From the NCBI GenBank assembly GCA_963826115.1, contig CAWGVS010000006.1:960001-1024000 (forward strand): a stretch of DNA of 64,000 nt, read 5' to 3'. Under the pieces are notes generated by a model. That model had not been told where the DNA came from. It did no database searches and worked only from the letters and a program-made list of their open reading frames with translations. Within the stretch, counting starts at the first letter, position 1. Each line of letters opens with the position of its first letter. This DNA comes from an uncultured Candidatus Rokubacteria bacterium. Lineage in GTDB: Bacteria > Methylomirabilota > Methylomirabilia > Rokubacteriales > DASRDR01. The translations under genes were made by a program, and so were the position numbers. Shown piece by piece: positions 34,311 through 44,219 of this stretch.

Positions 34311-35069
34311 ATGCGCGGCGCGTTCCTCGAGGATCTCAGCTGGCCGGAAGCCGGCGCGCGCATCGCCGCCGGGGCGGTCGTGGTGGTGCCGGTGGGCGCC
34401 GCGGCCAAGGAGCACGGCCCCCACCTGCCGCTCCGGACCGACTATCTGATCGCGCGGGAGCTCGGACGCCGCGTGGCCGAGGCGTTGCCCGTGCTGGTCG
34501 CGCCCGTCGTCTCGTTCGGGTACTATCCCGCGTTCGTCCACTACCCGGGGAGCCAGCACCTCCGCGCCGAGACGTTCATGGCGCTCCTGACCGACGTGCT
34601 GACGGGCTTCGTCGCCCAGGGCGCGCGCCGGCTGGCCGTCGTCAACACCGGCGTCTCGACGGAGGCGCCGCTCCGGATCGTGATCCGCGACTTCTACGCG
34701 ACCCACGGCGTGCGCGTCGCGGTGGCCGACCTCGCCACGCTGGGGCGGGCGGTCCAGCCCCGGCTCCAGCAGAAGCTCGGCGGCCACGCCGACGAGCTCG
34801 AGACCTCGCTCGTCCTGGCGATCGATCCGGGCGCGGTGCGGATGGCGCGCGCCGAGCCCGACTACGGGCACCTGCCGGACCTCCCGCGCACCGTCTTCTA
34901 CCAGCCCGTCGTCTTCGACGCCGACCCCGGCTCCGGCCCCGACTGGAGCCGCACCGGCGCGCGGGGCGACCCGTCGCTCGCGACGCGCGAAGTGGGGGAG
35001 GCGGCGCTCGAGGAGATCACCCGCGAGCTGGTGGACGGCCTGGTCGCGCTCTACCCCGACATCCGGTAG
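34311..35069 (+). CDS. Creatininase/MftE-family amidohydrolase
   Basis: PVGAAAKEHGPHLPLRTD, YPGS, GGHADELETS, GDPSLAT. Confidence 0.92.
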   Translation: MRGAFLEDLSWPEAGARIAAGAVVVVPVGAAAKEHGPHLPLRTDYLIARELGRRVAEALPVLVAPVVSFGYYPAFVHYPGSQHLRAETFMALLTDVLTGFVAQGARRLAVVNTGVSTEAPLRIVIRDFYATHGVRVAVADLATLGRAVQPRLQQKLGGHADELETSLVLAIDPGAVRMARAEPDYGHLPDLPRTVFYQPVVFDADPGSGPDWSRTGARGDPSLATREVGEAALEEITRELVDGLVALYPDIR

Positions 35070-35128
35070 CCGTTGCGCCACCACGAAGAGCCCGAGGCCG
35101 GCCGGGCGGGAGTTCGGGCGCGACCCGC

Positions 35129-36415
35129 TCAGTCGGTGGGAATAGGCGGCGGTCCTTCGCAGAGCGCGGGGAGGAGCCGGCACCGGCCCGGATCGAGGGG
35201 CCGCACGTCGAGCGGCGTCACGGCCTTCCGCCAGATCCGGACTCCCGAGTCGTCGTCGTCCGTCGCGACGAAGAAGTAGGGCCACGATGCCGCCATGTCG
35301 TCGATCGACGTGTTCAGGCCCTCGCCGAAACCAGCGGCATTGACCACACCCCATTCCGCGCCCGTGAGGGTCGCCCACACCGTGGCCTCGTCGCCGCCGA
35401 TACCGCGGCCGAGGAAGAGCCGCGACCGGAAGACGGCCATCGTCTGGAGGCGCACGACGCTGCTGAAGGGATCCTGGAGCTCGGCGGGCGTCACGTCCTC
35501 CCAGTCGAGCCCGTTGAATCGCCAGACCTGCGCTCGGTCCGGGTGATTGACGGTGCTGACGTAGAGCCGACCTCGGAACACGACCAGCGCGGTCGCGGTG
35601 GCGTTGCCCGGGTACCCGAAGCCTCCCGGCAGCAGCGCGCCGGGCAGCGCGTCGCCGTCCTCGTCGCTGGCCACCACCGGCTCCCAGTTGACCCCATCTC
35701 CGGTCCGCCAGATCTCGAGGCCCGTCAGCTCGGGTCCATCGCCCCCCGGCCGTTCCCTCGAGGAACCCACGTAGAGCTGCCCCGCGAACGTCCCGAGCAC
35801 CCCGCTGTGGTTGTTGACGGCGTCTCCGAACCCGTCCGAGACGACCGGCTCCCACGTCGCCCCGTCAGGCGTCCGCCAGATCTCGAGCGGCGCGCTGGTC
35901 GCGAGGTGGAGGCGCCCGTCGAAGGCGGCCAGGGAGGTGATCGCGGCACGGCGCCAGTTCTTGGCGGTCGGCGTGACCTCGCTCCACAGCTCGACGAAGG
36001 CGGTGACCGGGAGGCATACCGAGCGGAAGGGCACGCAGGATCGGAAGGGGACTTGCCCGGCGGTTCTCCAGACGTCCCCGTTGTCGGCGCCGATGTACAG
36101 TCGATTCTCGAAGACCGCGAGCGCCAGCGCACGCGGCGGGGCCGTACCAATCGGTGCCGGGGTCACGCCCCATGACGGGGTGACCTCTCGCCAGCGCCCG
36201 CTACCCAGCCGGGTCTTCCAGACCTCGCTGCCGCTGGCGCGGTTGGTCGTCACGACGTAGAGGTGACCATCGAAGATGGCCATGTTCCCCGTCTTGTTGT
36301 CCGGGTTGCCGAAGCCTGGCGTGTTCGCGAGGATCCACGAGTCGGCGTGGGCCGTCGAGACAAAGAGGGCTAGGACCCCCACGACAACCGCCAGTGTCCC
36401 GATGCGTGCTCGCAT
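35129..36415 (-). CDS. Secreted beta-propeller repeat protein
   Basis: Signal peptide (AHA-D); about 7 repeats of GFG..N..L..F.G.LY....EIWR..DG..WE.V. Confidence 0.75.
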   Translation of the reverse strand: MRARIGTLAVVVGVLALFVSTAHADSWILANTPGFGNPDNKTGNMAIFDGHLYVVTTNRASGSEVWKTRLGSGRWREVTPSWGVTPAPIGTAPPRALALAVFENRLYIGADNGDVWRTAGQVPFRSCVPFRSVCLPVTAFVELWSEVTPTAKNWRRAAITSLAAFDGRLHLATSAPLEIWRTPDGATWEPVVSDGFGDAVNNHSGVLGTFAGQLYVGSSRERPGGDGPELTGLEIWRTGDGVNWEPVVASDEDGDALPGALLPGGFGYPGNATATALVVFRGRLYVSTVNHPDRAQVWRFNGLDWEDVTPAELQDPFSSVVRLQTMAVFRSRLFLGRGIGGDEATVWATLTGAEWGVVNAAGFGEGLNTSIDDMAASWPYFFVATDDDDSGVRIWRKAVTPLDVRPLDPGRCRLLPALCEGPPPIPTD

Positions 36416-36449
36416 GGCGCTTTCCGGGTGCGTTGCGGAACCGGATTCT

Positions 36450-37871
36450 CTACCGCGGTGGTGGGGGCGGCGGGGGCACCGCGCCCAGGCTCGCGTCGAG
36501 GCCGGCATCCGAGCCCGCGCGGCCCGCCGGGCTTCCCGGAGCAGGGCCTCCTGGCCCACCGCGCGCCGGGTCCGGCATCGTCTGCCAGATTGGTGTCCCG
36601 TGCCCGCTGTTGCCGCTGCGCTGGACTCCGAAGCTGCCGTCGCCGGTGTTCGTCACCGCCTCCGGTCCCGTGCTCCCGCCGCGCGACGATCCCGTCCCGC
36701 CCTCCGTGCCCTGACCATCCGGATTGATGCCAGGCTGGGTTGTCTGCTGGCGGATCGTTGTACGGATGTCTTCGCGGGGATTCAGGCAACCGTGGATGGG
36801 CGCCCAGTGGCAACCGTCGTTGCGTCCCGTGCCGGCGGCGGGATCTTCGCGGGGCTGAGAATCCGATCCGCCGGTGTGGCGAGAGTGACGGCCGCCGACG
36901 ATCGAGCCCTTGAGCTCCCTCACGATTCGCCCATCCGAGGCCCTCTCCGCACCGTACCAGCTCCCGTTCCCGGCGCCGTCCACCTCCTCGTGGTAGTGGG
37001 TGGTGCCGTTGGAGTCGGACCCGTCCACGATCACCGTGTGGCCCCCGTCTCTGAAGGAAAACCGTTCACTGACACTCTTCGTGCCGTTCGGCTCCGTCGT
37101 GACGGTAGTGTCGCGACTTCCGTTCTCGTGGGAGCTGGTTTCGTGGGTGGTCGTCTGACCGTCCTCGTTCCTGGACGGAGGGTCCGTCGATTCGCTGGTC
37201 TGCTTGCCGATCCTCGATTCGGCTCGCTGGCGCGGGGTGCTGGACGGGCCGTCTCCGCTTGCCGCTCCTCCGGGATTACCCAAGGCGCCCCCCAGCGTGG
37301 GAGGGCCGCCCATCCGATCGGCGGCATTGCCGGAGCCGAAGCCGCCACCGGCCTCGTCGAGGCAGCCCTGGGGATTGGGGAAGCAGTCACGGCCGACACC
37401 GGTACCCTGGTGGCCGGGCGGCTCGCTGACCCGACCGGTGCCGAGCGTCCGGGGGAGCCCCCCGTCCTCCGTTCCTGCGGGCCGGCCGCGCTGGAGCGGA
37501 TCCCGGTTCAGCTGCTCAAGCTGCTTGAGGTCGCGGATCGCGTCCAGCTGGTTGGCGTCGCGGAGCGTGGGGTCGATCCCGGGGACCGCGGCGGCCGGGA
37601 GTGTCGGGACGGTGGGCCCGGCCGCCGGCGCTCCCGGGCCGGCCTTGGGTCCCGAGACCCCTGGCCCGCTGCCCGGCGGAGCCGGAGGCGGAACCGGCTT
37701 GGCGGTCGGCGGCGTCACGACGTTGGGCTGGGTGAGTGGCTTGACGGCGTCGCTCTGGATCGCCGGCGCCGGAGTCTGTGACTGAATGGTCGACGGAGCC
37801 TTCGGCGGATCGGCGGCGATCGCGGGGGTGACGAGCAGCAGGACAAGGGCCGAGAGGACGAGAGTTGACAT
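36450..37871 (-). CDS. Secreted Pro/Gly-rich protein, paralog B
   Basis: GGAGG RBS, signal peptide, two Cys pairs, poly-Pro C-terminus; paralogous to 37990-39426. Confidence 0.8.
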   Translation of the reverse strand: MSTLVLSALVLLLVTPAIAADPPKAPSTIQSQTPAPAIQSDAVKPLTQPNVVTPPTAKPVPPPAPPGSGPGVSGPKAGPGAPAAGPTVPTLPAAAVPGIDPTLRDANQLDAIRDLKQLEQLNRDPLQRGRPAGTEDGGLPRTLGTGRVSEPPGHQGTGVGRDCFPNPQGCLDEAGGGFGSGNAADRMGGPPTLGGALGNPGGAASGDGPSSTPRQRAESRIGKQTSESTDPPSRNEDGQTTTHETSSHENGSRDTTVTTEPNGTKSVSERFSFRDGGHTVIVDGSDSNGTTHYHEEVDGAGNGSWYGAERASDGRIVRELKGSIVGGRHSRHTGGSDSQPREDPAAGTGRNDGCHWAPIHGCLNPREDIRTTIRQQTTQPGINPDGQGTEGGTGSSRGGSTGPEAVTNTGDGSFGVQRSGNSGHGTPIWQTMPDPARGGPGGPAPGSPAGRAGSDAGLDASLGAVPPPPPPPR

Positions 37872-37989
37872 TTCGACCTCCAGGAAGCCCGTCGTCCCGT
37901 CTTGAGCGGGGCGGGCACCGGTCCGACTCAACCCGCGCATGAATACGTACATCGGCCGATGTGGCATGTGTGCGGCGGAGACCCTCCGT

Positions 37990-39426
37990 TCAGCGCGGCG
38001 GGGGCGGTGGCGGCACCGCGCCCAGGCTCGCGTCGAGGCCGGCGTCCGAGCCCGCGCGGCCCGCCGGGCTTCCCGGAGCGGGGCCTCCCGGCCCGCCGCG
38101 CGCCGGATCCGGCATCGTCTGCCAGATCGGGGTCCCGTGGCCGCTGTTGCCGCTGCGCTGGACCCCGAAGCTGCCGTCGCCGGTGTTCGTCACGGCCTCG
38201 GGCCCCGTGCTCCCGCCGCGCGACGATCCCGTCCCGCCCTCCGTGCCTTGACCGTCCGGGTTGATGCCAGGCTGGGTGGTCTGCTGGCGGATCGTGGTTC
38301 GGATGTCTTCGCGGGGATTCAGGCAACCGTGGATGGGCGCCCAGTTGCAACCGTCGTTGCGTCCCGTGCCCGCGTTCGGGTCCTCGCGTGGCTGGGAGTC
38401 CGGCCCGCCACTAGCGAACACATGTCGCCCCCCGACGATCGAGCCCTTCTGTTCCGTCAAGACCCTTCCATCAGGCTCCCTGATCACCATGTACCAGCCG
38501 CCGTTGCCGTTCCCGTCTGTCTCGGAATGATAGTGGGCAGTCCCCTGGTCGGCGTCGGTTCGGTCATTGATGTGCGTGCGACTGCCGTCCTTGAACGAGA
38601 ACTCCTCGTCGAGCTCGCCGTTCCCGTTTTGGTCCTCCGTGTGGGTTGCCGTGCGGGTTCCGTTCTCGTAGTCTTCTCCCGACTGCGTCGTGGTGGTCTC
38701 ACTGTCGGTGTGGGTGCTTGACACTTGAACGCTCGTGTTCGCTCCCAGCTTCGCGTCGGCTCGCTGACGTACGTTGGGGCCCTCGCCGCCGTCCCCGCTG
38801 GCGGCTGCCCCCGGATTGCCCAGAGCACCACCCAAGGTGGGAGGGCCGCCGAGGCCACCGCCCGGGGCGGACCCGAACCGGTCCCTGGCTCCGCGGCCGA
38901 GGCAGCTCACTGGATTGTTGACGCAGTCGCGACCGAAGCCTGCCGGCCGCTGGTGGTCGGATGGCGCCCCCAGCTGTCCCCGGCCAAGGGTCTGGGGTAG
39001 CCCCTCGCTCTGACCCGCGGGCCGGCCGCGCTGGAGCGGATCCCGGTTCAGCTGCTCGAGCTGCTTGAGGTCGCGGATCGCGTCCATCTGGTTGGCGTCG
39101 CGGATGGTGCTGCCGAGCTTCGGGTCGATCCCGGGCGTGCCAGCGGCCGGGATCGTCGGGACGGTGGGCCCGGCCGCCGGCGCTCCCGGGCCGGCCTTGG
39201 GCCCCGAGACCCCCGGCCCACTGGCTGGCGGAGCCGGAGGCGGGACCGGCTTGGCGGTTGGCGGCGTCACGACGTTGGGCTGCGTGAGTGGCTTGACGGC
39301 GTCGCTCTGGATCGCCGGGCCCGGGCCCTGCGACTGGGTCGCCGTCGGGACCTTCGGCGGATCGGCGGCGTGCGCGGGGGCGGTGACGAGGAGCAGGACG
39401 AGGGCCGAGAGGACGAGCATCATCAT
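37990..39426 (-). CDS. Secreted Pro/Gly-rich protein, paralog A
   Basis: AGGAGG RBS, signal peptide (AHA-A); conservation with paralog B including synonymous third-position differences supports this frame. Confidence 0.8.
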   Translation of the reverse strand: MMMLVLSALVLLLVTAPAHAADPPKVPTATQSQGPGPAIQSDAVKPLTQPNVVTPPTAKPVPPPAPPASGPGVSGPKAGPGAPAAGPTVPTIPAAGTPGIDPKLGSTIRDANQMDAIRDLKQLEQLNRDPLQRGRPAGQSEGLPQTLGRGQLGAPSDHQRPAGFGRDCVNNPVSCLGRGARDRFGSAPGGGLGGPPTLGGALGNPGAAASGDGGEGPNVRQRADAKLGANTSVQVSSTHTDSETTTTQSGEDYENGTRTATHTEDQNGNGELDEEFSFKDGSRTHINDRTDADQGTAHYHSETDGNGNGGWYMVIREPDGRVLTEQKGSIVGGRHVFASGGPDSQPREDPNAGTGRNDGCNWAPIHGCLNPREDIRTTIRQQTTQPGINPDGQGTEGGTGSSRGGSTGPEAVTNTGDGSFGVQRSGNSGHGTPIWQTMPDPARGGPGGPAPGSPAGRAGSDAGLDASLGAVPPPPPPR

Positions 39427-39708
39427 GCCGGCCTCCTGGGAACCCGCCATCCCGTACCGGGACGGTCGGGATTTCCCTGACTACACCCTGTCCGGCGGCC
39501 CAGTGTCAATACGCATGCCTCTCTGGCTTGCGCAGGGCGTCACAAGCGCCCGACGGACCAGGCCGCCCTCGTCTGGGACGCGTGGTCAGGGCCACGCGTC
39601 GCCACTTGACACGACACCGCCGCGAGGGTGAACTGGCGCCGCCGAAGCAGGGCTGCGAGCGCCTCGCCGGTCGAGGGGGCGAGCCACGTCCCTCGCCGGC
39701 CGCGCCGC

Positions 39709-41025
39709 ATGGTGCCGACACGCCTTGTGTTCTTGGTGCTGGTGGCCTGTACGCTCGCGTCGCCGGCGTGGGCGCAGGAGGTCGACTTCGTCGACACGCC
39801 GGCCGGCCGGGCGTTCAAGGCCCAGCAGTACGAGGTGGCGCTCGCGGAGCTCGAGCGCATGCTCGCCGCGAACCCCCGGAACGCGTTGGCGGTCCGTTAT
39901 CTCGGGATCACGCTGGACCGGCTCGGGCGCTATCGCGAGGCGGTGGACATCTACCGGCGCGCGCTCGCGCTCGAGCCCGACAGCGCGGCGACCTACTTCC
40001 ACCTCGGGGTGACCTACTACAAGGCCAGGGAGCCGGAGCTTGCGCGGGCGAGCTTTGACCGGGCCGGCCAGCTCGCGCCGGAGTCGCTCTACGAGCAGAT
40101 GGCGCGTCGCTACCTCGACGCCCTCGCGGAGCAGCAAGTGGAGCTCCAGCGGCCTGGGGCGCCGAGGCTCTTCTCGCTCTTCGCGGACGTCGGCGTGCAG
40201 TACGACTCGAACATCCCGGCGGCTCCGAGCGGCGCCGGCCTGTTCGACGGCAAGCGCGGCGGGGCTCGAGTCGTCGAGTACGTGTCGGCGGAGCTGCGGC
40301 TTCTCAGGAGCCCTGGCTGGCTCGGGCTGGTCGAGGGCTCCACGTACCAGGCCCAGTATCCGGACAGCGCCTTCGACGGGTTCGGCATCGCGACGTATGG
40401 TCTCGGGGCCTTTCTCCAGCGCGACACCACGATCGGGGAACGGGCGCTGATCTTCTCGGCCCGGTACAACTACAACTGGGTCTTTCTCGACGGGGACACG
40501 TACAGCGGCTCCCACGTCGCCACCGCGAGCGCGCAGCTGGACGAGGCGCGGTGGACGGCGACCAACGTCTACTACCGATATACGCGGGACGACTTCGAGG
40601 ACGAGGGATTCGATCCGGCCGTCTCCTCGCGCGACGCGGACAATCACGCGGTCGGTGTGACGCAGATCCTGTACTTCGCCGACCGAAAGGGCCAGTTTCG
40701 CATCGGCTACGAGTACCAGACGAACCAGGCGCGAGGGCAGAACTTCGATTTCGACGGCCACAAGGTCACGGTCTCGGCGAGCGTGCCGCTGCCGGGCGCG
40801 ATCCAGGCGGAGCTGGCCGCCGACTACGGTCGCGAGCGATACGCGAGCTTCCAGGGACCCGCACGGCGCGAGACGGACCGGTGGGGGATTCGGACCAGCC
40901 TGGCTCGCTGGTTTGGCCCGTTTCTCCTCCGGCTGACGGGGGCGTGGACCACCGAACAGTCGAGCTATGATGTCCTCGAGTACGAACGCTGGGTTGTCGG
41001 GGTGAGCGCCAGCTATGCATATTGA
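39709..41025 (+). CDS. TPR plus outer-membrane beta-barrel protein (Slam/DUF560-like architecture)
   Basis: Signal peptide (AWA-Q), about 3 TPRs, then GVQYDSNI first strand, amphipathic strands, C-terminal VGVSASYAY beta-signal. Confidence 0.75.
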   Translation: MVPTRLVFLVLVACTLASPAWAQEVDFVDTPAGRAFKAQQYEVALAELERMLAANPRNALAVRYLGITLDRLGRYREAVDIYRRALALEPDSAATYFHLGVTYYKAREPELARASFDRAGQLAPESLYEQMARRYLDALAEQQVELQRPGAPRLFSLFADVGVQYDSNIPAAPSGAGLFDGKRGGARVVEYVSAELRLLRSPGWLGLVEGSTYQAQYPDSAFDGFGIATYGLGAFLQRDTTIGERALIFSARYNYNWVFLDGDTYSGSHVATASAQLDEARWTATNVYYRYTRDDFEDEGFDPAVSSRDADNHAVGVTQILYFADRKGQFRIGYEYQTNQARGQNFDFDGHKVTVSASVPLPGAIQAELAADYGRERYASFQGPARRETDRWGIRTSLARWFGPFLLRLTGAWTTEQSSYDVLEYERWVVGVSASYAY

Positions 41026-41047
41026 GCTCTGCCGTTCGTGGCGTCCG

Positions 41048-41518
41048 ATGAGGGCCATGGCGTGCGGCGGCGCGTTGGCGATGCTGGTCACGGCGCTGCC
41101 GTCGGAGGTGTCGTGGGCCCAGGGCGCGGTCGGCGGTGTGACGCGGTCCCCGGACGAGGTCATCGACGTCTCCCTCGGCGCGATCGAGGGGCCCGTCCTC
41201 CAGCCCATCTGGGTTCCCCCGGGAACGCCGCGGGGGATACCGGCGTCCCCGCCCTACAAGCAGGAGCCTCCGGCCGCGCAGCGGGATTTCCGAGCCCTGT
41301 CGTCGACGGGGTCGGTGCCGCCGCCGAATCCGGGCAAGGGCGGCGGCCAGCCCGGTGGCGGAACGGGGGGCGGCTCGGCCGGCCCACCGGGGCAATTTCC
41401 CCCCGGGCAGTTTCCACCACCCAACATCGATCCCACGCCGCCGAACGTCGGACTTCCTCCGCCGGGTCCTGGTCTTCCGCCGCCCGGACCCTTCCTGCGC
41501 CCCGCCCGCGTGCGATAG
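41048..41518 (+). CDS. Small secreted Pro/Gly-rich protein; start 41015 or 41048
   Basis: Signal-like SWA-Q, PPGQF x2 and GLPPPGP x2 repeats; directly follows the barrel gene. Confidence 0.5.
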   Translation: MRAMACGGALAMLVTALPSEVSWAQGAVGGVTRSPDEVIDVSLGAIEGPVLQPIWVPPGTPRGIPASPPYKQEPPAAQRDFRALSSTGSVPPPNPGKGGGQPGGGTGGGSAGPPGQFPPGQFPPPNIDPTPPNVGLPPPGPGLPPPGPFLRPARVR

Positions 41519-41600
41519 GGAGCCTCCGCGCACCCACGCCCCGCGGGAGCGCGTGCGCGTGCTGCCGGCGTGGGCAGGCCTCGTTGCTCCTCTAGGAGGG

Positions 41601-42392
41601 ATGCGAATGGACCTCGGTCTCCAGGGCAAGGCTGCGATCATTACCGGCGGCAGTGACGGCCTCGGCCTGGCCACGGCGCGGCGCCTGGCGGCCGAGGGGG
41701 CGGCGGTGGCGATCTGCGGGCGCGACGCGGCGCGCCTCGCGCGCGCCGCGGAGACGCTACGGGCGGACGGCGCGCCCGTGCTCGACGTTCACTGCGACGT
41801 CACGCGTCCCGAAGATCTCGAGCGGCTCGTGGGATCGGCCGTCGAGCGGTTCGGCCGGGTCGACATCCTTATCAACAACGCCGGCACGTCGGCGGCCCGC
41901 GGCTTCGACACCGTGGACGACGCGGCATGGCAGGCCGATCTCGAGCTCAAGCTCTTCGGCGCCGTGCGCTGCGTGCGGCTCTGCGTGCCTCACATGCGCC
42001 GCCACGGCGGCGGCCGCATCGTGAACATCCTGAACACGGGCGCCAAGACGCCCGGCGCGCGCTCGATGCCCACCTCGGTGAGCCGCGCCGCGGGGCTCGC
42101 GCTCACGAAGGCGCTCTCGAAGGAGCTGGCGCCGGACGGCATCCTCGTCAACGCCGTCTGCATCGGGCTGGTCAAGAGCGGCCAGTGGGAGCGGAGCTGG
42201 GCCAAGGAGGGCCGCCCGGGCACGCTCGACGCCTACTACGAGCGCCTGGCCCGGGAGCGCGGGGTCCCCGTCGGCCGTATCGGCGAGGCCGACGAGCTCG
42301 GGGCCCTGGTGGCGTTCCTGGTCTCCGCGCCCGCCGCGTTCATCACGGGCGTCGCCATCAACTTCGACGGCGGCAATTCCGCCGTCGTCTGA
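41601..42392 (+). CDS. Short-chain dehydrogenase/reductase (atypical, lacks YxxxK)
   Basis: MDLGLQGKAAIITGGSDGLG, NNAG, TSVSRAA, FITG..DGG; AGGAGG RBS. Confidence 0.9.
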   Translation: MRMDLGLQGKAAIITGGSDGLGLATARRLAAEGAAVAICGRDAARLARAAETLRADGAPVLDVHCDVTRPEDLERLVGSAVERFGRVDILINNAGTSAARGFDTVDDAAWQADLELKLFGAVRCVRLCVPHMRRHGGGRIVNILNTGAKTPGARSMPTSVSRAAGLALTKALSKELAPDGILVNAVCIGLVKSGQWERSWAKEGRPGTLDAYYERLARERGVPVGRIGEADELGALVAFLVSAPAAFITGVAINFDGGNSAVV

Positions 42393-42404: not shown

Positions 42405-44219
42405 TCAACGGCGGACGCGGTACACGCGCGCCCCCGTCGACTCGAAGACCAGGTCGAGGCCAGGCGGGGCCGGCGCCGGAACGCGGAAGCCCTCGACGCC
42501 GTCGGTCACGTCCAGGACGTGGGTGAACGCGAGCTGGTCGAGCTGCGCCAGCGCCGCAGGTAGATCGTGCACGCCGTCGACCGGCCGCTCGCCGTATGGC
42601 CCCACGAGCTTCACGTAGTCGTGGTGGAGAAAGTAGGGCGGCGGACTCGGGCCGAGGATCAGAACCCGGCAGGGCGCGGGCATCCGGTTCAGGTATGCGA
42701 ACGCGTCGGCGTAGGGGACTCTCTCTCGCCAGCGGGCCTCGTCGCGGCGGCCATCGAGCACGCTCGCGGCGGCGGGCACATAGGTCCGGGCGAGGACGGC
42801 CGCACCGTAGGCCACGGAGATCGCCAGCGCCAGGACCCACGCGAACCGGGCCCGCCGGCCGTGGCGCCTTGCGAGTGCGCTCGCCCCGGCCACTGCCAGG
42901 GCCGTCGTCAGGATCACCACCGGCGCGAGAAAGCGCGACTCCTGCTGGGCGAAGAACCAAGCCAGAGTGTTGAGGCCGATCCACAGCACGGCATAGCGCA
43001 CCGCCCGGTGACGCCAGCGGACGAGCCCCGCTGGGAAGAAGGCGAGCGGCACCACCCCGATGCCGCCCGCGCCGTGGAAGCGATGCGCGTGGTAGGTGTA
43101 GCGGAAGGGCAGGAGCGCCAGGTCCCACGCGGTCCGGCCGAACCCCCGGCCCCGCACTTCGAGGTAGCGCACCCAGTCGACGCTCGCGTCGGCCGGGAAC
43201 GCTCGGGGCCGGCCCAGCCGCGCGAGTGCGGGCGTGGGTGGATAGATCGGGACGCCGAGGATCAGGTAGTTCCGGAGATAGAAGGGGAGCGCCACCACCG
43301 CGGCCAACGCCGCCGCCTCGGCGGCCAGCCCGATCGCCTCGCGCGCGCCGCTCCGGCGCCAACGATGTACCAGCGCCAGGGCGAGGGTGATCGGCGCCAT
43401 CATCAGGCCGTTGTACTTCGTGCCCATCGCGAGGCCGAGGAACAGGGCGCCGACCCGGAACCACCCGCGAGACGCTCGGTCCTCGAGGAGGAGCCTCACC
43501 GCGGCGAGGACGAAGCCCGCATACTCGAGATCGACGAAGGCGACGGTCACGAGGTCCGTGAGGGCCGGCATCGTGGCGACGAGCAGCGCGGCCGCGGCTG
43601 CCCATGCCGCCCCGGCGCCGAGCCAGCGGACGAGCCCCGCGGCCTGCACGACCACCGCCGAGCCGAGCAGGAGCCCGACGACCCCCGGCGCCCGCTCGTT
43701 GGCGAGCGCCATCCCGGCCCCGAACAGGAGCTCGACGACTGCCGGGAAGGCGGTGTGGGACATGTCGAGAACCGGCTCGATGCGACCGTGGCGCAGCCAC
43801 ATCGCCGGTCCGAGCAGGTGATACGAGATCCCGTCGTGGCCGATGTTGCCGACGGGCCGGGCCAGGGAGGCCAGGACCAGGACGAGGAGCGCCGGGGCCA
43901 GAACGAGCCACACGAGCGAACGGGGCGGCTCGAGGGCGCGGAACGTCGCGGCGAGCGCGGTGCGCTCGGCCCGGGGCAGCATCGGAAGCAGGCCGGCGGC
44001 GGCGCAGACCGCGACGGTGAGGGCCGAGAACCAGAGCTGCCCGACGAGGAACAACCCGACCGCTTCGGCGCCCGCCCCCGCCAGGACGGACAGGGCGAGC
44101 GTCTCCGCGGCGCCGAGCCCGGCGCGGACCGGGCGGAGGAGCCGAAACCCCAGCGTGGTCCAGGTCAGGCCGAGGAACGCGACCGCGCCGAGCGCCCACA
44201 GACTCTCGACGATGATCAT
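42405..44219 (-). CDS. GT-C superfamily membrane glycosyltransferase (ArnT/PMT-like)
   Basis: HDGISYHL, AFVDL, GTKYNG, PFYLRNY..G.PIYP, QESRFL; more than 11 TM. Confidence 0.75.
   Translation of the reverse strand: MIIVESLWALGAVAFLGLTWTTLGFRLLRPVRAGLGAAETLALSVLAGAGAEAVGLFLVGQLWFSALTVAVCAAAGLLPMLPRAERTALAATFRALEPPRSLVWLVLAPALLVLVLASLARPVGNIGHDGISYHLLGPAMWLRHGRIEPVLDMSHTAFPAVVELLFGAGMALANERAPGVVGLLLGSAVVVQAAGLVRWLGAGAAWAAAAALLVATMPALTDLVTVAFVDLEYAGFVLAAVRLLLEDRASRGWFRVGALFLGLAMGTKYNGLMMAPITLALALVHRWRRSGAREAIGLAAEAAALAAVVALPFYLRNYLILGVPIYPPTPALARLGRPRAFPADASVDWVRYLEVRGRGFGRTAWDLALLPFRYTYHAHRFHGAGGIGVVPLAFFPAGLVRWRHRAVRYAVLWIGLNTLAWFFAQQESRFLAPVVILTTALAVAGASALARRHGRRARFAWVLALAISVAYGAAVLARTYVPAAASVLDGRRDEARWRERVPYADAFAYLNRMPAPCRVLILGPSPPPYFLHHDYVKLVGPYGERPVDGVHDLPAALAQLDQLAFTHVLDVTDGVEGFRVPAPAPPGLDLVFESTGARVYRVRR

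Follow-up and report, generated by a model that had tools for sequence, protein, structure and literature searches.

What would an outer-membrane protein built from tetratricopeptide repeats (TPR) and a β-barrel do when it is encoded beside four genes for secreted proteins in a soil Rokubacteria-type genome? The locus that raises this question lies at 35129..41518 of a 64,000-nucleotide stretch of DNA from an uncultured Candidatus Rokubacteria bacterium (contig CAWGVS010000006.1), and we refer to the whole of this stretch as the window. An earlier note on the window had described a block of five genes and interpreted it as a dedicated translocator or anchor of the Slam, or type XI, kind with four cargo proteins. 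The observation itself is confirmed, all five open reading frames (ORFs) being present, and the interpretation is partly supported. In our analysis the core of the locus would be a two-gene module, consisting of a divergent protein of the DUF560/Slam superfamily and a small Sec-exported partner, PG. A motif in PG recurs in two of the remaining proteins, the paralogs parA and parB, while the fifth gene, prop, appears simply to travel with the island.

A divergent barrel protein with the Slam layout

The gene at 39709..41025 on the + strand encodes a Slam-like outer-membrane protein of 438 residues. A signal peptide (residues 1-22) is followed by a TPR domain (approximately residues 31-144, 39799-40140), seen both in matches to Pfam TPR families and in the helices of an AlphaFold2 (AF2) model, and by a barrel that spans residues 155-437 (40171-41019) and ends in an aromatic SYAY terminus. 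The model, calculated from an alignment of 26 rows, has a predicted local distance difference test (pLDDT) score of 88.9 and a predicted TM-score (pTM) of 0.77, with helices at residues 31-144 and exactly 14 strands within residues 155-437. The layout that the earlier note had proposed, a TPR domain and a barrel for which 14 strands were expected, was therefore recovered. Slam itself is presented in the available text of PMC5449769 as an N-terminal periplasmic TPR domain joined to a predicted 14-strand barrel.

Pfam identified TPR_2 (E 7e-14) and 12 more TPR-type families in the protein, together with TPR_Slam at E 1e-3 and 19.9 bits, below the cut-off of 35.2. The barrel family of Slam, SlipAM (PF04575), scored 16.9 bits (E 4.8e-3; 16.8 bits in the genome search) under a cut-off of 22, and neither DUF2860 (PF11059) nor BBP2_2 (PF10082), with which the earlier note had suggested comparing the barrel, gave a match at E<=0.01. 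In NCBIfam the matches were TPR-only, including BcsC at residues 61-120 (E 0.0063), and a sequence search of the Protein Data Bank (PDB) matched TPR proteins alone and was uninformative on the barrel. The relative at locus L054, a second copy in genome G247 that is 41% identical to the window barrel (E 9e-98), passes SlipAM with 32.4 bits in an alignment that spans profile positions 1-284 of 288, and a distant relative (L034) passes with 23.6 bits; these are the two that reach the cut-off among 16 scanned relatives. Because L054 passes over the full domain, we read the window barrel as a divergent protein of the DUF560 superfamily. We conclude from these comparisons that it is a divergent DUF560 relative with the Slam layout and not a member by the Pfam threshold, so that the kinship with PF04575 suggested earlier stands as remote homology traced through relatives and falls as direct membership.

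The word-indexed search with the barrel protein returned 82 matches, of which 32 span the barrel and 50 cover the TPR part alone. The barrel alignment was made from 26 of the 32, six truncated sequences (P0008, P0009, P0010, P0024, P0025 and P0027) being omitted. Individual Pfam scans of 26 close homologs found SlipAM in six (best E 6.3e-9), BBP2_2 in seven, DUF2860 in three and TPR_Slam in 18. For the wider family we used a barrel-only profile built from 19 sequences, which matched 4992 library representatives at E<=1e-3, 627 of them at E<=1e-30. Among the best 100 of 150 listed library relatives SlipAM occurred in 16, DUF2860 in 12 and TPR_Slam in 43, and no barrel family was commoner than SlipAM.

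The fold searches gave channels of the same strand number. CymA was the best match in VIA (Z 21.6, root-mean-square deviation (rmsd) 3.4, 268 residues aligned), followed by OmpG (Z 20.3). Foldseek placed BcsC first by E-value (E 6e-10), with PelBC and PgaA also among the matches, but its TM-scores favour the 14-strand OmpG and CymA over BcsC. Although CymA and OmpG give the best superpositions (TMt 0.47-0.70), they are 9-11% identical to the barrel, have no TPR domain and show no family-level sequence signal. No Slam chain was present in the Foldseek or VIA lists of PDB entries for the barrel model. After CymA and OmpG, the VIA list for barrel residues 140-438 gives chains of Bacteroidota β-barrel assembly machinery (BAM) complexes (9hjm_F, Z 17.1; 9n2d_B, Z 16.3; 9hj3_F, Z 16.1), and another, 9hiv_F, was found in Foldseek.

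A small partner predicted to bind at two places

Immediately 3′ of the barrel gene, on the same strand, lies PG, which starts either at 41015, overlapping the barrel stop, or at 41048, and ends at 41518. It encodes a small secreted protein with a docking helix, a lumen motif and a Pro/Gly-rich tail, and its mature product is 26.7% Pro and 19.1% Gly. The docking motif DEVIDVSLGAI is encoded at 41153..41185 (+; residues 36-46 counted from 41048) and the lumen motif PPYKQEPPAAQRDF at 41249..41290 (+; residues 68-81). Pfam gave no family for PG at E<=0.01.

A motif-bearing small gene directly follows the barrel in 8/8 close-clade loci that have downstream sequence (the window, G247:C20, G185, L002, L011, L012, L013 and L014), a count that includes two near-identical pairs, L011 with L014 and L012 with L013. 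We recognised a PG-type gene by the signature PP[YF]xQxPPxAQ plus an acidic-aromatic end. At a ninth locus, G247:C37, a diverged PG stands 3′ of the barrel, with a signal peptide, VDEAMRVLDLS, QQTDFR and a Pro-rich tail; at L015 the sequence stops approximately 190 nt after the barrel and is hence uninformative on PG. In an alignment of seven PG sequences about 45 residues are conserved, with P68, P69, Y70, Q72, P74, P75, A77, Q78 and D80 invariant in all seven, and the tail varies from about 13 to about 90 residues.

The complex was predicted from barrel residues 23-438 (26-row alignment) and PG residues 26-95 (7-row alignment). It scored 0.76-0.77 over three runs and the best of three controls scored 0.02. 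Of 80 solved complexes 58 attain the mark for this score, as do 2 of 110 mismatched pairs, counts that apply only approximately here, as custom alignments were used. At least 72% of the contacts were common to the three runs, with a partner pLDDT of at least 65, and this prediction supports binding of PG to the barrel protein.

In the model PG would bind at two places. Its acidic helix, DxxIDVSLGAI, is predicted to occupy the concave, conserved surface of the TPR domain, where PG residues 33-50 contact TPR residues 27-37, 60-67, 92-107 and 123-138, among them the family-invariant A35, F36, K37, Y64, Y104, Y128 and Y135. The contacts of lowest error join L43, G44, D36 and D40 of PG to TPR residues 33, 36, 37, 64 and 94. 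Beyond the helix the chain would run along the lumen wall, with residues 61-84 predicted along the whole length of the lumen-facing strands 1, 13 and 14 and at barrel loops 170-173, 298-308, 381-384 and 420-425, so that the invariant PPYKQxPPAAQxDF would lie under these loops. Since the N-terminal domain is periplasmic and the number of strands even, the contacted loops would be L1, L4, L6 and L7 of the outer side. By standard barrel topology these loops are extracellular, in which case PG, of which the model covers residues 26-95, would pass through the barrel with its variable Pro-rich tail exposed outside the cell, a split and threaded arrangement that could be described as an anchor plus fibre.

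Upstream of the barrel the neighbours differ between loci, with a Pro-rich secreted protein in L002 and a fusion resembling MFS and spermidine synthase proteins in L011. At G247:C20 (L053 9723-12302) and G185:C150 (L055 5815-8132) the barrel-PG pair is preceded by a radical-SAM gene on the same strand (Pfam Radical_SAM, E 4e-19, in L053), and after this gene comes a Cys-rich protein of 310-390 residues with, by eye, a twin-arginine-like TRREVLK N-terminus. It is possible that these two are a maturase-precursor pair feeding the same barrel.

The docking motif recurs in the paralogs

The helix of PG that docks in the model, DEVIDVSLGAI, reappears in the form DAGLDASLGAV at the extreme C-terminus of both parA (36477..36509, − strand) and parB (38014..38046, − strand, located by the genome-wide pattern search), and is followed there only by poly-Pro and, in parA, the stop codon. 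We searched the six-frame translation of the 6.24-Mb genome (12,489,664 residues) with the pattern D..[ILVT]D[LVA][SAG][LT][GS][AS][LIV] and found three matches, namely PG, parA and parB. Two stricter forms gave the same three, and an 8-residue core gave two additional matches elsewhere. In the ORFs of the window and 62 loci (approximately 832,000 residues) the 11-residue pattern was limited to parA, parB and the PG genes of six distinct loci, and in a set of 265 proteins it was limited to five full-length members of the par family, in which it invariably lies 8-11 residues before the C-terminus.

The pattern was written after the sequences had been seen, and parA and parB count as one event; as it was defined post hoc, no formal probability can be attached to the recurrence. 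The common motif makes the paralogs candidate clients again. As they carry the motif at the extreme C-terminus, inside a strongly constrained tail, they would be the most likely additional clients of the TPR groove that PG uses, and may be either exported or retained at the outer membrane.

This constraint is seen in a comparison of the two paralogs. parA (36450..37871, −, 473 aa) and parB (37990..39426, −, 478 aa) encode secreted proteins that are 76% identical, in agreement with their earlier description as tandem secreted paralogs, with near-identical ends and a diverged centre. From the N-terminus parA has a Pro-rich region, a Cys pair, a β-meander domain (residues 210-333), a second Cys pair and 128 C-terminal residues rich in Gly and Pro. 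By the method of Nei and Gojobori, the synonymous (dS) and non-synonymous (dN) distances between the two genes are 0.26 and 0.09 for codons 1-135, 0.87 and 0.30 for codons 136-209, 1.07 and 0.52 for codons 210-335, and 0.285 and 0.004 for codons 346-473. The C-terminal 128 codons have 24 synonymous differences and one non-synonymous difference, and these residues are under very strong purifying selection. The same pattern extends to the five family members beyond the window, which keep the N-terminal third and the last 128 residues and vary in the centre. Across 36450-39426 the two genes thus form a mosaic, with dS of 0.26-0.29 at the ends and 0.87-1.07 in the middle, a pattern compatible with gene conversion of the two ends or with a swapped central cassette.

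The AF2 model of parA has a mean pLDDT of 52.5, with 316 of 473 residues below 50 and residues 210-333 at 83-96. The C-terminal tail is of low confidence and yet has a dN of 0.004, so this apparently disordered tail is the most constrained part of both paralogs. Residues 210-333 are modelled as one helix and nine antiparallel strands, and the variable β-meander domains may be the working, ligand-facing parts of the two proteins. Foldseek returned no match for this folded centre at E<=0.001, and VIA returned segments of large barrels only (best Z 9.9, rmsd 3.4, 109 residues), an arrangement that is common. On the model, the centre is not recognisably an 8-strand barrel of the kind found in cargo of the type XI secretion system (T11SS). 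At E<=0.01 Pfam gave no family for parA or parB, and the ESM Atlas had no usable match for parA. The upstream gene of L002 aligned to the par proteins with an hhalign probability of 90.9 (E 1.2e-6), over the signal peptide and the low-complexity Pro-rich N-terminus only. Barrel homolog P0004 and par homolog P0087 are each found on a JGI contig 18482 nt long, which suggests that they share it.

The prop gene

Downstream of parA on the same strand, prop (35129..36415) encodes a secreted repeat protein of 428 residues with two Cys pairs and a Pro-rich end. No Pfam family was found at E<=0.01, and NCBIfam had no match for prop, parA, parB or PG. Many of its 24 homologs carry a precomputed match to PF25852, named DUF6242_C in the ESM Atlas, where prop itself has leads at the 0.91 level and DUF6242_C occurs in 14% of one cluster. 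From these weak matches prop is probably a β-propeller of the DUF6242_C-like kind. The homologs keep the two Cys pairs and a PPxPxPTD-like end. The docking motif was absent from prop and its homologs, and prop is tied to the system solely by lying on the island, within the par operon, with no detectable link to the barrel. None of the contigs that carry prop homologs agrees in length with a contig of a barrel or par homolog.

Secretion signals and the divergent promoter region

Signal peptides were judged by eye from the translations, and all five products have a basic n-region, a hydrophobic stretch and an AxA-type site at the N-terminus. The earlier note had described Sec-type signals without a lipobox in all five. 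The AxA-type sites agree with this, although the signal peptide of the barrel protein contains a lipobox-like LVAC. We considered whether the barrel could be a lipoprotein and rejected this, as the Cys is unconserved, being absent in 25/25 aligned homologs. According to the available part of PMC12282271, clients of T11SS are Sec-exported and can be unlipidated. A further feature common to parA, parB and prop is the presence of four Cys each, in two CX6-7C pairs.

The two gene directions share a divergent intergenic region of 282 nt (39427..39708). The TTGACA box noted previously for each direction could be located, at 39606-39611 on the + strand and at 39504-39509 on the − strand (as the reverse complement), and by a rough composition estimate approximately 0.03 such hexamers are expected in a spacer of this length. 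A scan for the complete sigma-70 pattern in the spacer found none.

The five genes lie on an accessory island

Why are these genes found together? Comparison with related genomes places the block within a 6.5-kb insert (35068..41606) between two genes that are adjacent in genomes of the same genus. By blastn, similarity to six same-genus loci ends at 35065-35067 and returns at 41603-41607, and two relatives have a spacer of 83 or 91 nt where this genome has the island. The left flank is a 255-aa gene ending at 35069 and the right flank a short-chain dehydrogenase (Pfam adh_short) starting at 41616, both conserved in the genus. We found 11 same-genus places with both flanking genes on one contig. 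The flanks are 98-119 nt apart in six of these (G242, G231, G240, G239, G243:C5 and G236), 360-799 nt apart in four and approximately 4.5 kb apart in one (G235), compared with 6549 nt in this genome.

At the equivalent site G235:C29 (L064 850-5378) carries a different insert of 4.5 kb, with genes unrelated to those of the island; by eye its ORFs encode acyl-CoA-ligase-like, solute-binding and acyltransferase-like proteins. Since an unrelated insert occupies the same place, the insertion site is a variable spot, and it looks like a hotspot for accessory DNA.

The composition of the block is also distinct. G+C content at third codon positions (GC3) is 0.82-0.89 in prop, parA, parB and the barrel gene versus 0.95-0.98 in six upstream genes, which bears out the less GC-biased codon usage that the earlier note had seen by eye; the larger genes downstream of the island have values of 0.90-0.95. 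At E<=1e-20 none of 14 same-genus genomes has the barrel, and the par family and prop are each found in one of 251 phylum genomes, namely this one. No direct or inverted repeats of at least 9 nt were found at the island ends, and no integrase or transposase was noticed among the ORFs of the block, no family scan having been aimed at mobility genes. From the insertion evidence it follows that the five genes arrived, or survive, as one unit. The data support the block as one acquired unit, for which a horizontally acquired accessory island is the best explanation.

To the right of the island and outside the inserted block, 42405-44219 (−) encodes a 604-aa multi-pass membrane protein with a weak match to PMT (mannosyltransferase; E 0.0091, 16.0 bits, cut-off 22.7). 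Pieces of 34800-41900 were also observed in four DNA runs (X1-X4) from two studies, labelled plant and soil metagenome. The listed contigs are short (119-374 nt), and among those listed none crosses a gene junction. Identical contigs of 151-357 nt cover pieces of prop, parA, parB and the barrel gene, one on prop with a 2-letter gap, and those listed for PG have 6-15 differing positions. The contigs without differing letters point to the same or a near-identical strain at low depth in those samples, and one of the runs may be the source sample. No RNA run was among those listed.

Distribution of the barrel family

A search of 251 phylum genomes found a match to the barrel at E<=1e-20 in 39. At E<=1e-140 close orthologs were limited to four places, spread over the three genomes G000, G247 (two copies) and G185, and the remaining phylum matches belong to a TPR-barrel family of approximately 530 aa with about 25% identity to the window barrel, present in 33 of 159 sister-family genomes. 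In six loci of this larger family that we examined, a gene for a FecR-domain protein directly adjoins the barrel in three and lies within 4 kb in a fourth. Loci with a FecR neighbour include L058 (6746-11477), L059 (7557-10058) and L061 (5939-9400), and in L058 a CHASE2-adenylate-cyclase-PilZ gene also lies beside the barrel. These neighbours suggest that the barrel superfamily has also been used to build a module for envelope signalling. The earlier note had named a match to a FecR/CHASE2-associated barrel as evidence that would count against its interpretation. The outcome is mixed, as such association is seen in these distant cousins and not in the window barrel's own clade.

In their available parts, PMC8406197, PMC12282271 and PMC5449769 present DUF560 and T11SS as proteobacterial. 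Among the literature matches listed, none joins Rokubacteria or Methylomirabilota with DUF560, T11SS or Slam. On the sequence comparisons above, we read the barrel as a DUF560-superfamily protein that occurs outside Proteobacteria, in a soil Rokubacteria-type genome. The network in PMC8406197, as far as its available text goes, puts PgaA homologs in DUF560 cluster 5, which we count in favour of the exopolysaccharide porin considered below.

Weighing the proposed mechanism

On balance we lean towards a T11SS-like module that relies on a linear docking motif and holds a single threaded partner. Several points weigh against it. The barrel scores under the SlipAM cut-off. The complex is a prediction in which PG is modelled to residue 95, and a hairpin with a periplasmic tail would also be compatible with it. 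A TbpB-like 8-strand cargo barrel was found in no neighbour, either as a Pfam family (none in all four) or in the Foldseek search with the parA model. By tblastn parA, parB and prop adjoin no other barrel (0/62 loci) and are found in their own genome only, so that, as they do not recur with it, a single island and a post hoc motif are what connects them to the barrel. Finally, PG and the paralogs would compete for one groove, which the model does not explain. The idea of conserved cargo genes beside the barrel therefore holds for PG, with its 8/8 loci and predicted complex, and does not hold equally for the other three. A bolder version, in which a translocon outside Proteobacteria reads an 11-residue TPR-docking motif instead of an 8-strand domain, PG stays threaded through the 14-strand barrel as a split surface anchor resembling an autotransporter, and the two hypervariable paralogs are exported or displayed via the motif, is one that we put forward tentatively.

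A different explanation, which we consider doubtful, treats the barrel as a porin or gated channel that PG, as a periplasmic plug or regulator, enters from below while its tail stays in the periplasm, with no export and with parA, parB and prop independent. The best fold matches of the barrel are indeed 14-strand channels, and one of them, CymA, is plugged by its own N-terminus. The predicted contacts would fix PG residues 33-84 only and not the side on which the tail lies, and the tail is very short in L011 and L055, so that it is not the conserved part. However, the family signal points toward SlipAM and not toward porin families, and the motif stands at the C-terminus of two large secreted proteins of the island, where a plug-only model has no need of it.

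It is improbable that the five genes are functionally unlinked, the island being a patchwork and the shared motif low-complexity chance. The post hoc definition of the motif would allow this, as would a rough composition estimate of about three chance matches genome-wide for its shortest, 7-residue core, and parA, parB and prop never recur with the barrel. Yet all three matches of the strict 7-, 8- and 11-residue forms lie in a 6.5-kb island out of 6.24 Mb, the motif keeps its terminal position in 5/5 full-length par homologs and occurs in the PG genes at six distinct loci, and within PG the contacts predicted with most confidence fall on it.

We regard it as highly improbable that the barrel belongs functionally with the FecR- and CHASE2-associated TPR barrels and serves envelope signalling and not export. 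The neighbours of its ~530-aa relatives argue for such a role, but FecR and CHASE2 genes are absent from the island and, among the selected neighbours scanned with Pfam, were not seen at the close-clade loci either, and the close clade has its own conserved partner, PG. Least probable of all is an exopolysaccharide export porin of the BcsC, PgaA or PelB type with the Pro-rich proteins as matrix components: BcsC heads the Foldseek list and a TPR domain followed by a C-terminal barrel is common to these systems, but the model has 14 strands where such porins have 16, its TMt is low for BcsC and PelB (0.32-0.41) compared with OmpG (0.64-0.70), and among the scanned ORFs of nine loci no glycosyltransferase or synthase family was above cut-off, the sole synthase-related match being the sub-threshold PMT at 42405-44219, outside the island. 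All four alternatives are weaker than the T11SS-like reading.

Relation to known systems

Under the T11SS-like reading the threaded PG invites comparison with the type V and inverse autotransporters, in which a single polypeptide forms a 12-strand barrel and a segment in the lumen links periplasmic and surface parts. Both would hold a polypeptide segment in the lumen of a small barrel. The system here differs in having two polypeptides, 14 modelled strands and a TPR docking site, and the autotransporter barrels EstA and EspP were weak rows in Foldseek (TMt 0.22-0.29).

The nearest relatives are the type XI DUF560 proteins Slam1, Slam2, NilB and HrpB, which share the TPR and 14-strand layout, the position of the gene beside a client, and remote homology with the window barrel. 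The window barrel differs in falling below the Pfam threshold and in its Rokubacteria-type host. Cargo of Slam/DUF560 proteins shares an 8-strand C-terminal barrel domain (TbpBBD or lipoprotein C-like), which was not found in the island neighbours, and recognition here would apparently be by an 11-residue linear motif. The small partner conserved with the barrel is a further difference, none being described for Slam/DUF560 in the available parts of PMC12282271, PMC8406197 and PMC5449769. A precedent is offered by the T11SS proteins of marine cluster 3. In this DUF560 clade, too, the canonical cargo barrel is missing from the neighbours, and the co-occurring family is instead DUF1194, according to the text available from PMC12282271. 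The partner there is DUF1194, in contrast to the PPYKQ-motif protein here, and both are known from co-occurrence.

Implications

How Slam and T11SS proteins choose their clients and how the pore works are open questions, according to the available part of a 2026 review (PMC13721041). The locus described here is probably a variant of a type XI-like system in which clients are recognised via a linear motif, and which would export them if the model holds. If this reading is false, the locus is an accessory island of secreted proteins in an uncultured organism. If it is true, the system would consist of two genes and be small enough for reconstitution in E. coli, and its recognition motif, of peptide size, could be mutated and transplanted as a minimal T11SS targeting signal. 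PG in the pore may then resemble a stalled substrate or trapped translocation intermediate suited to structural work. The range of the DUF560 superfamily would also come to include Rokubacteria-type soil bacteria, and the system would mean that uncharacterised environmental clades of DUF560 follow other cargo rules than the animal-associated cluster.

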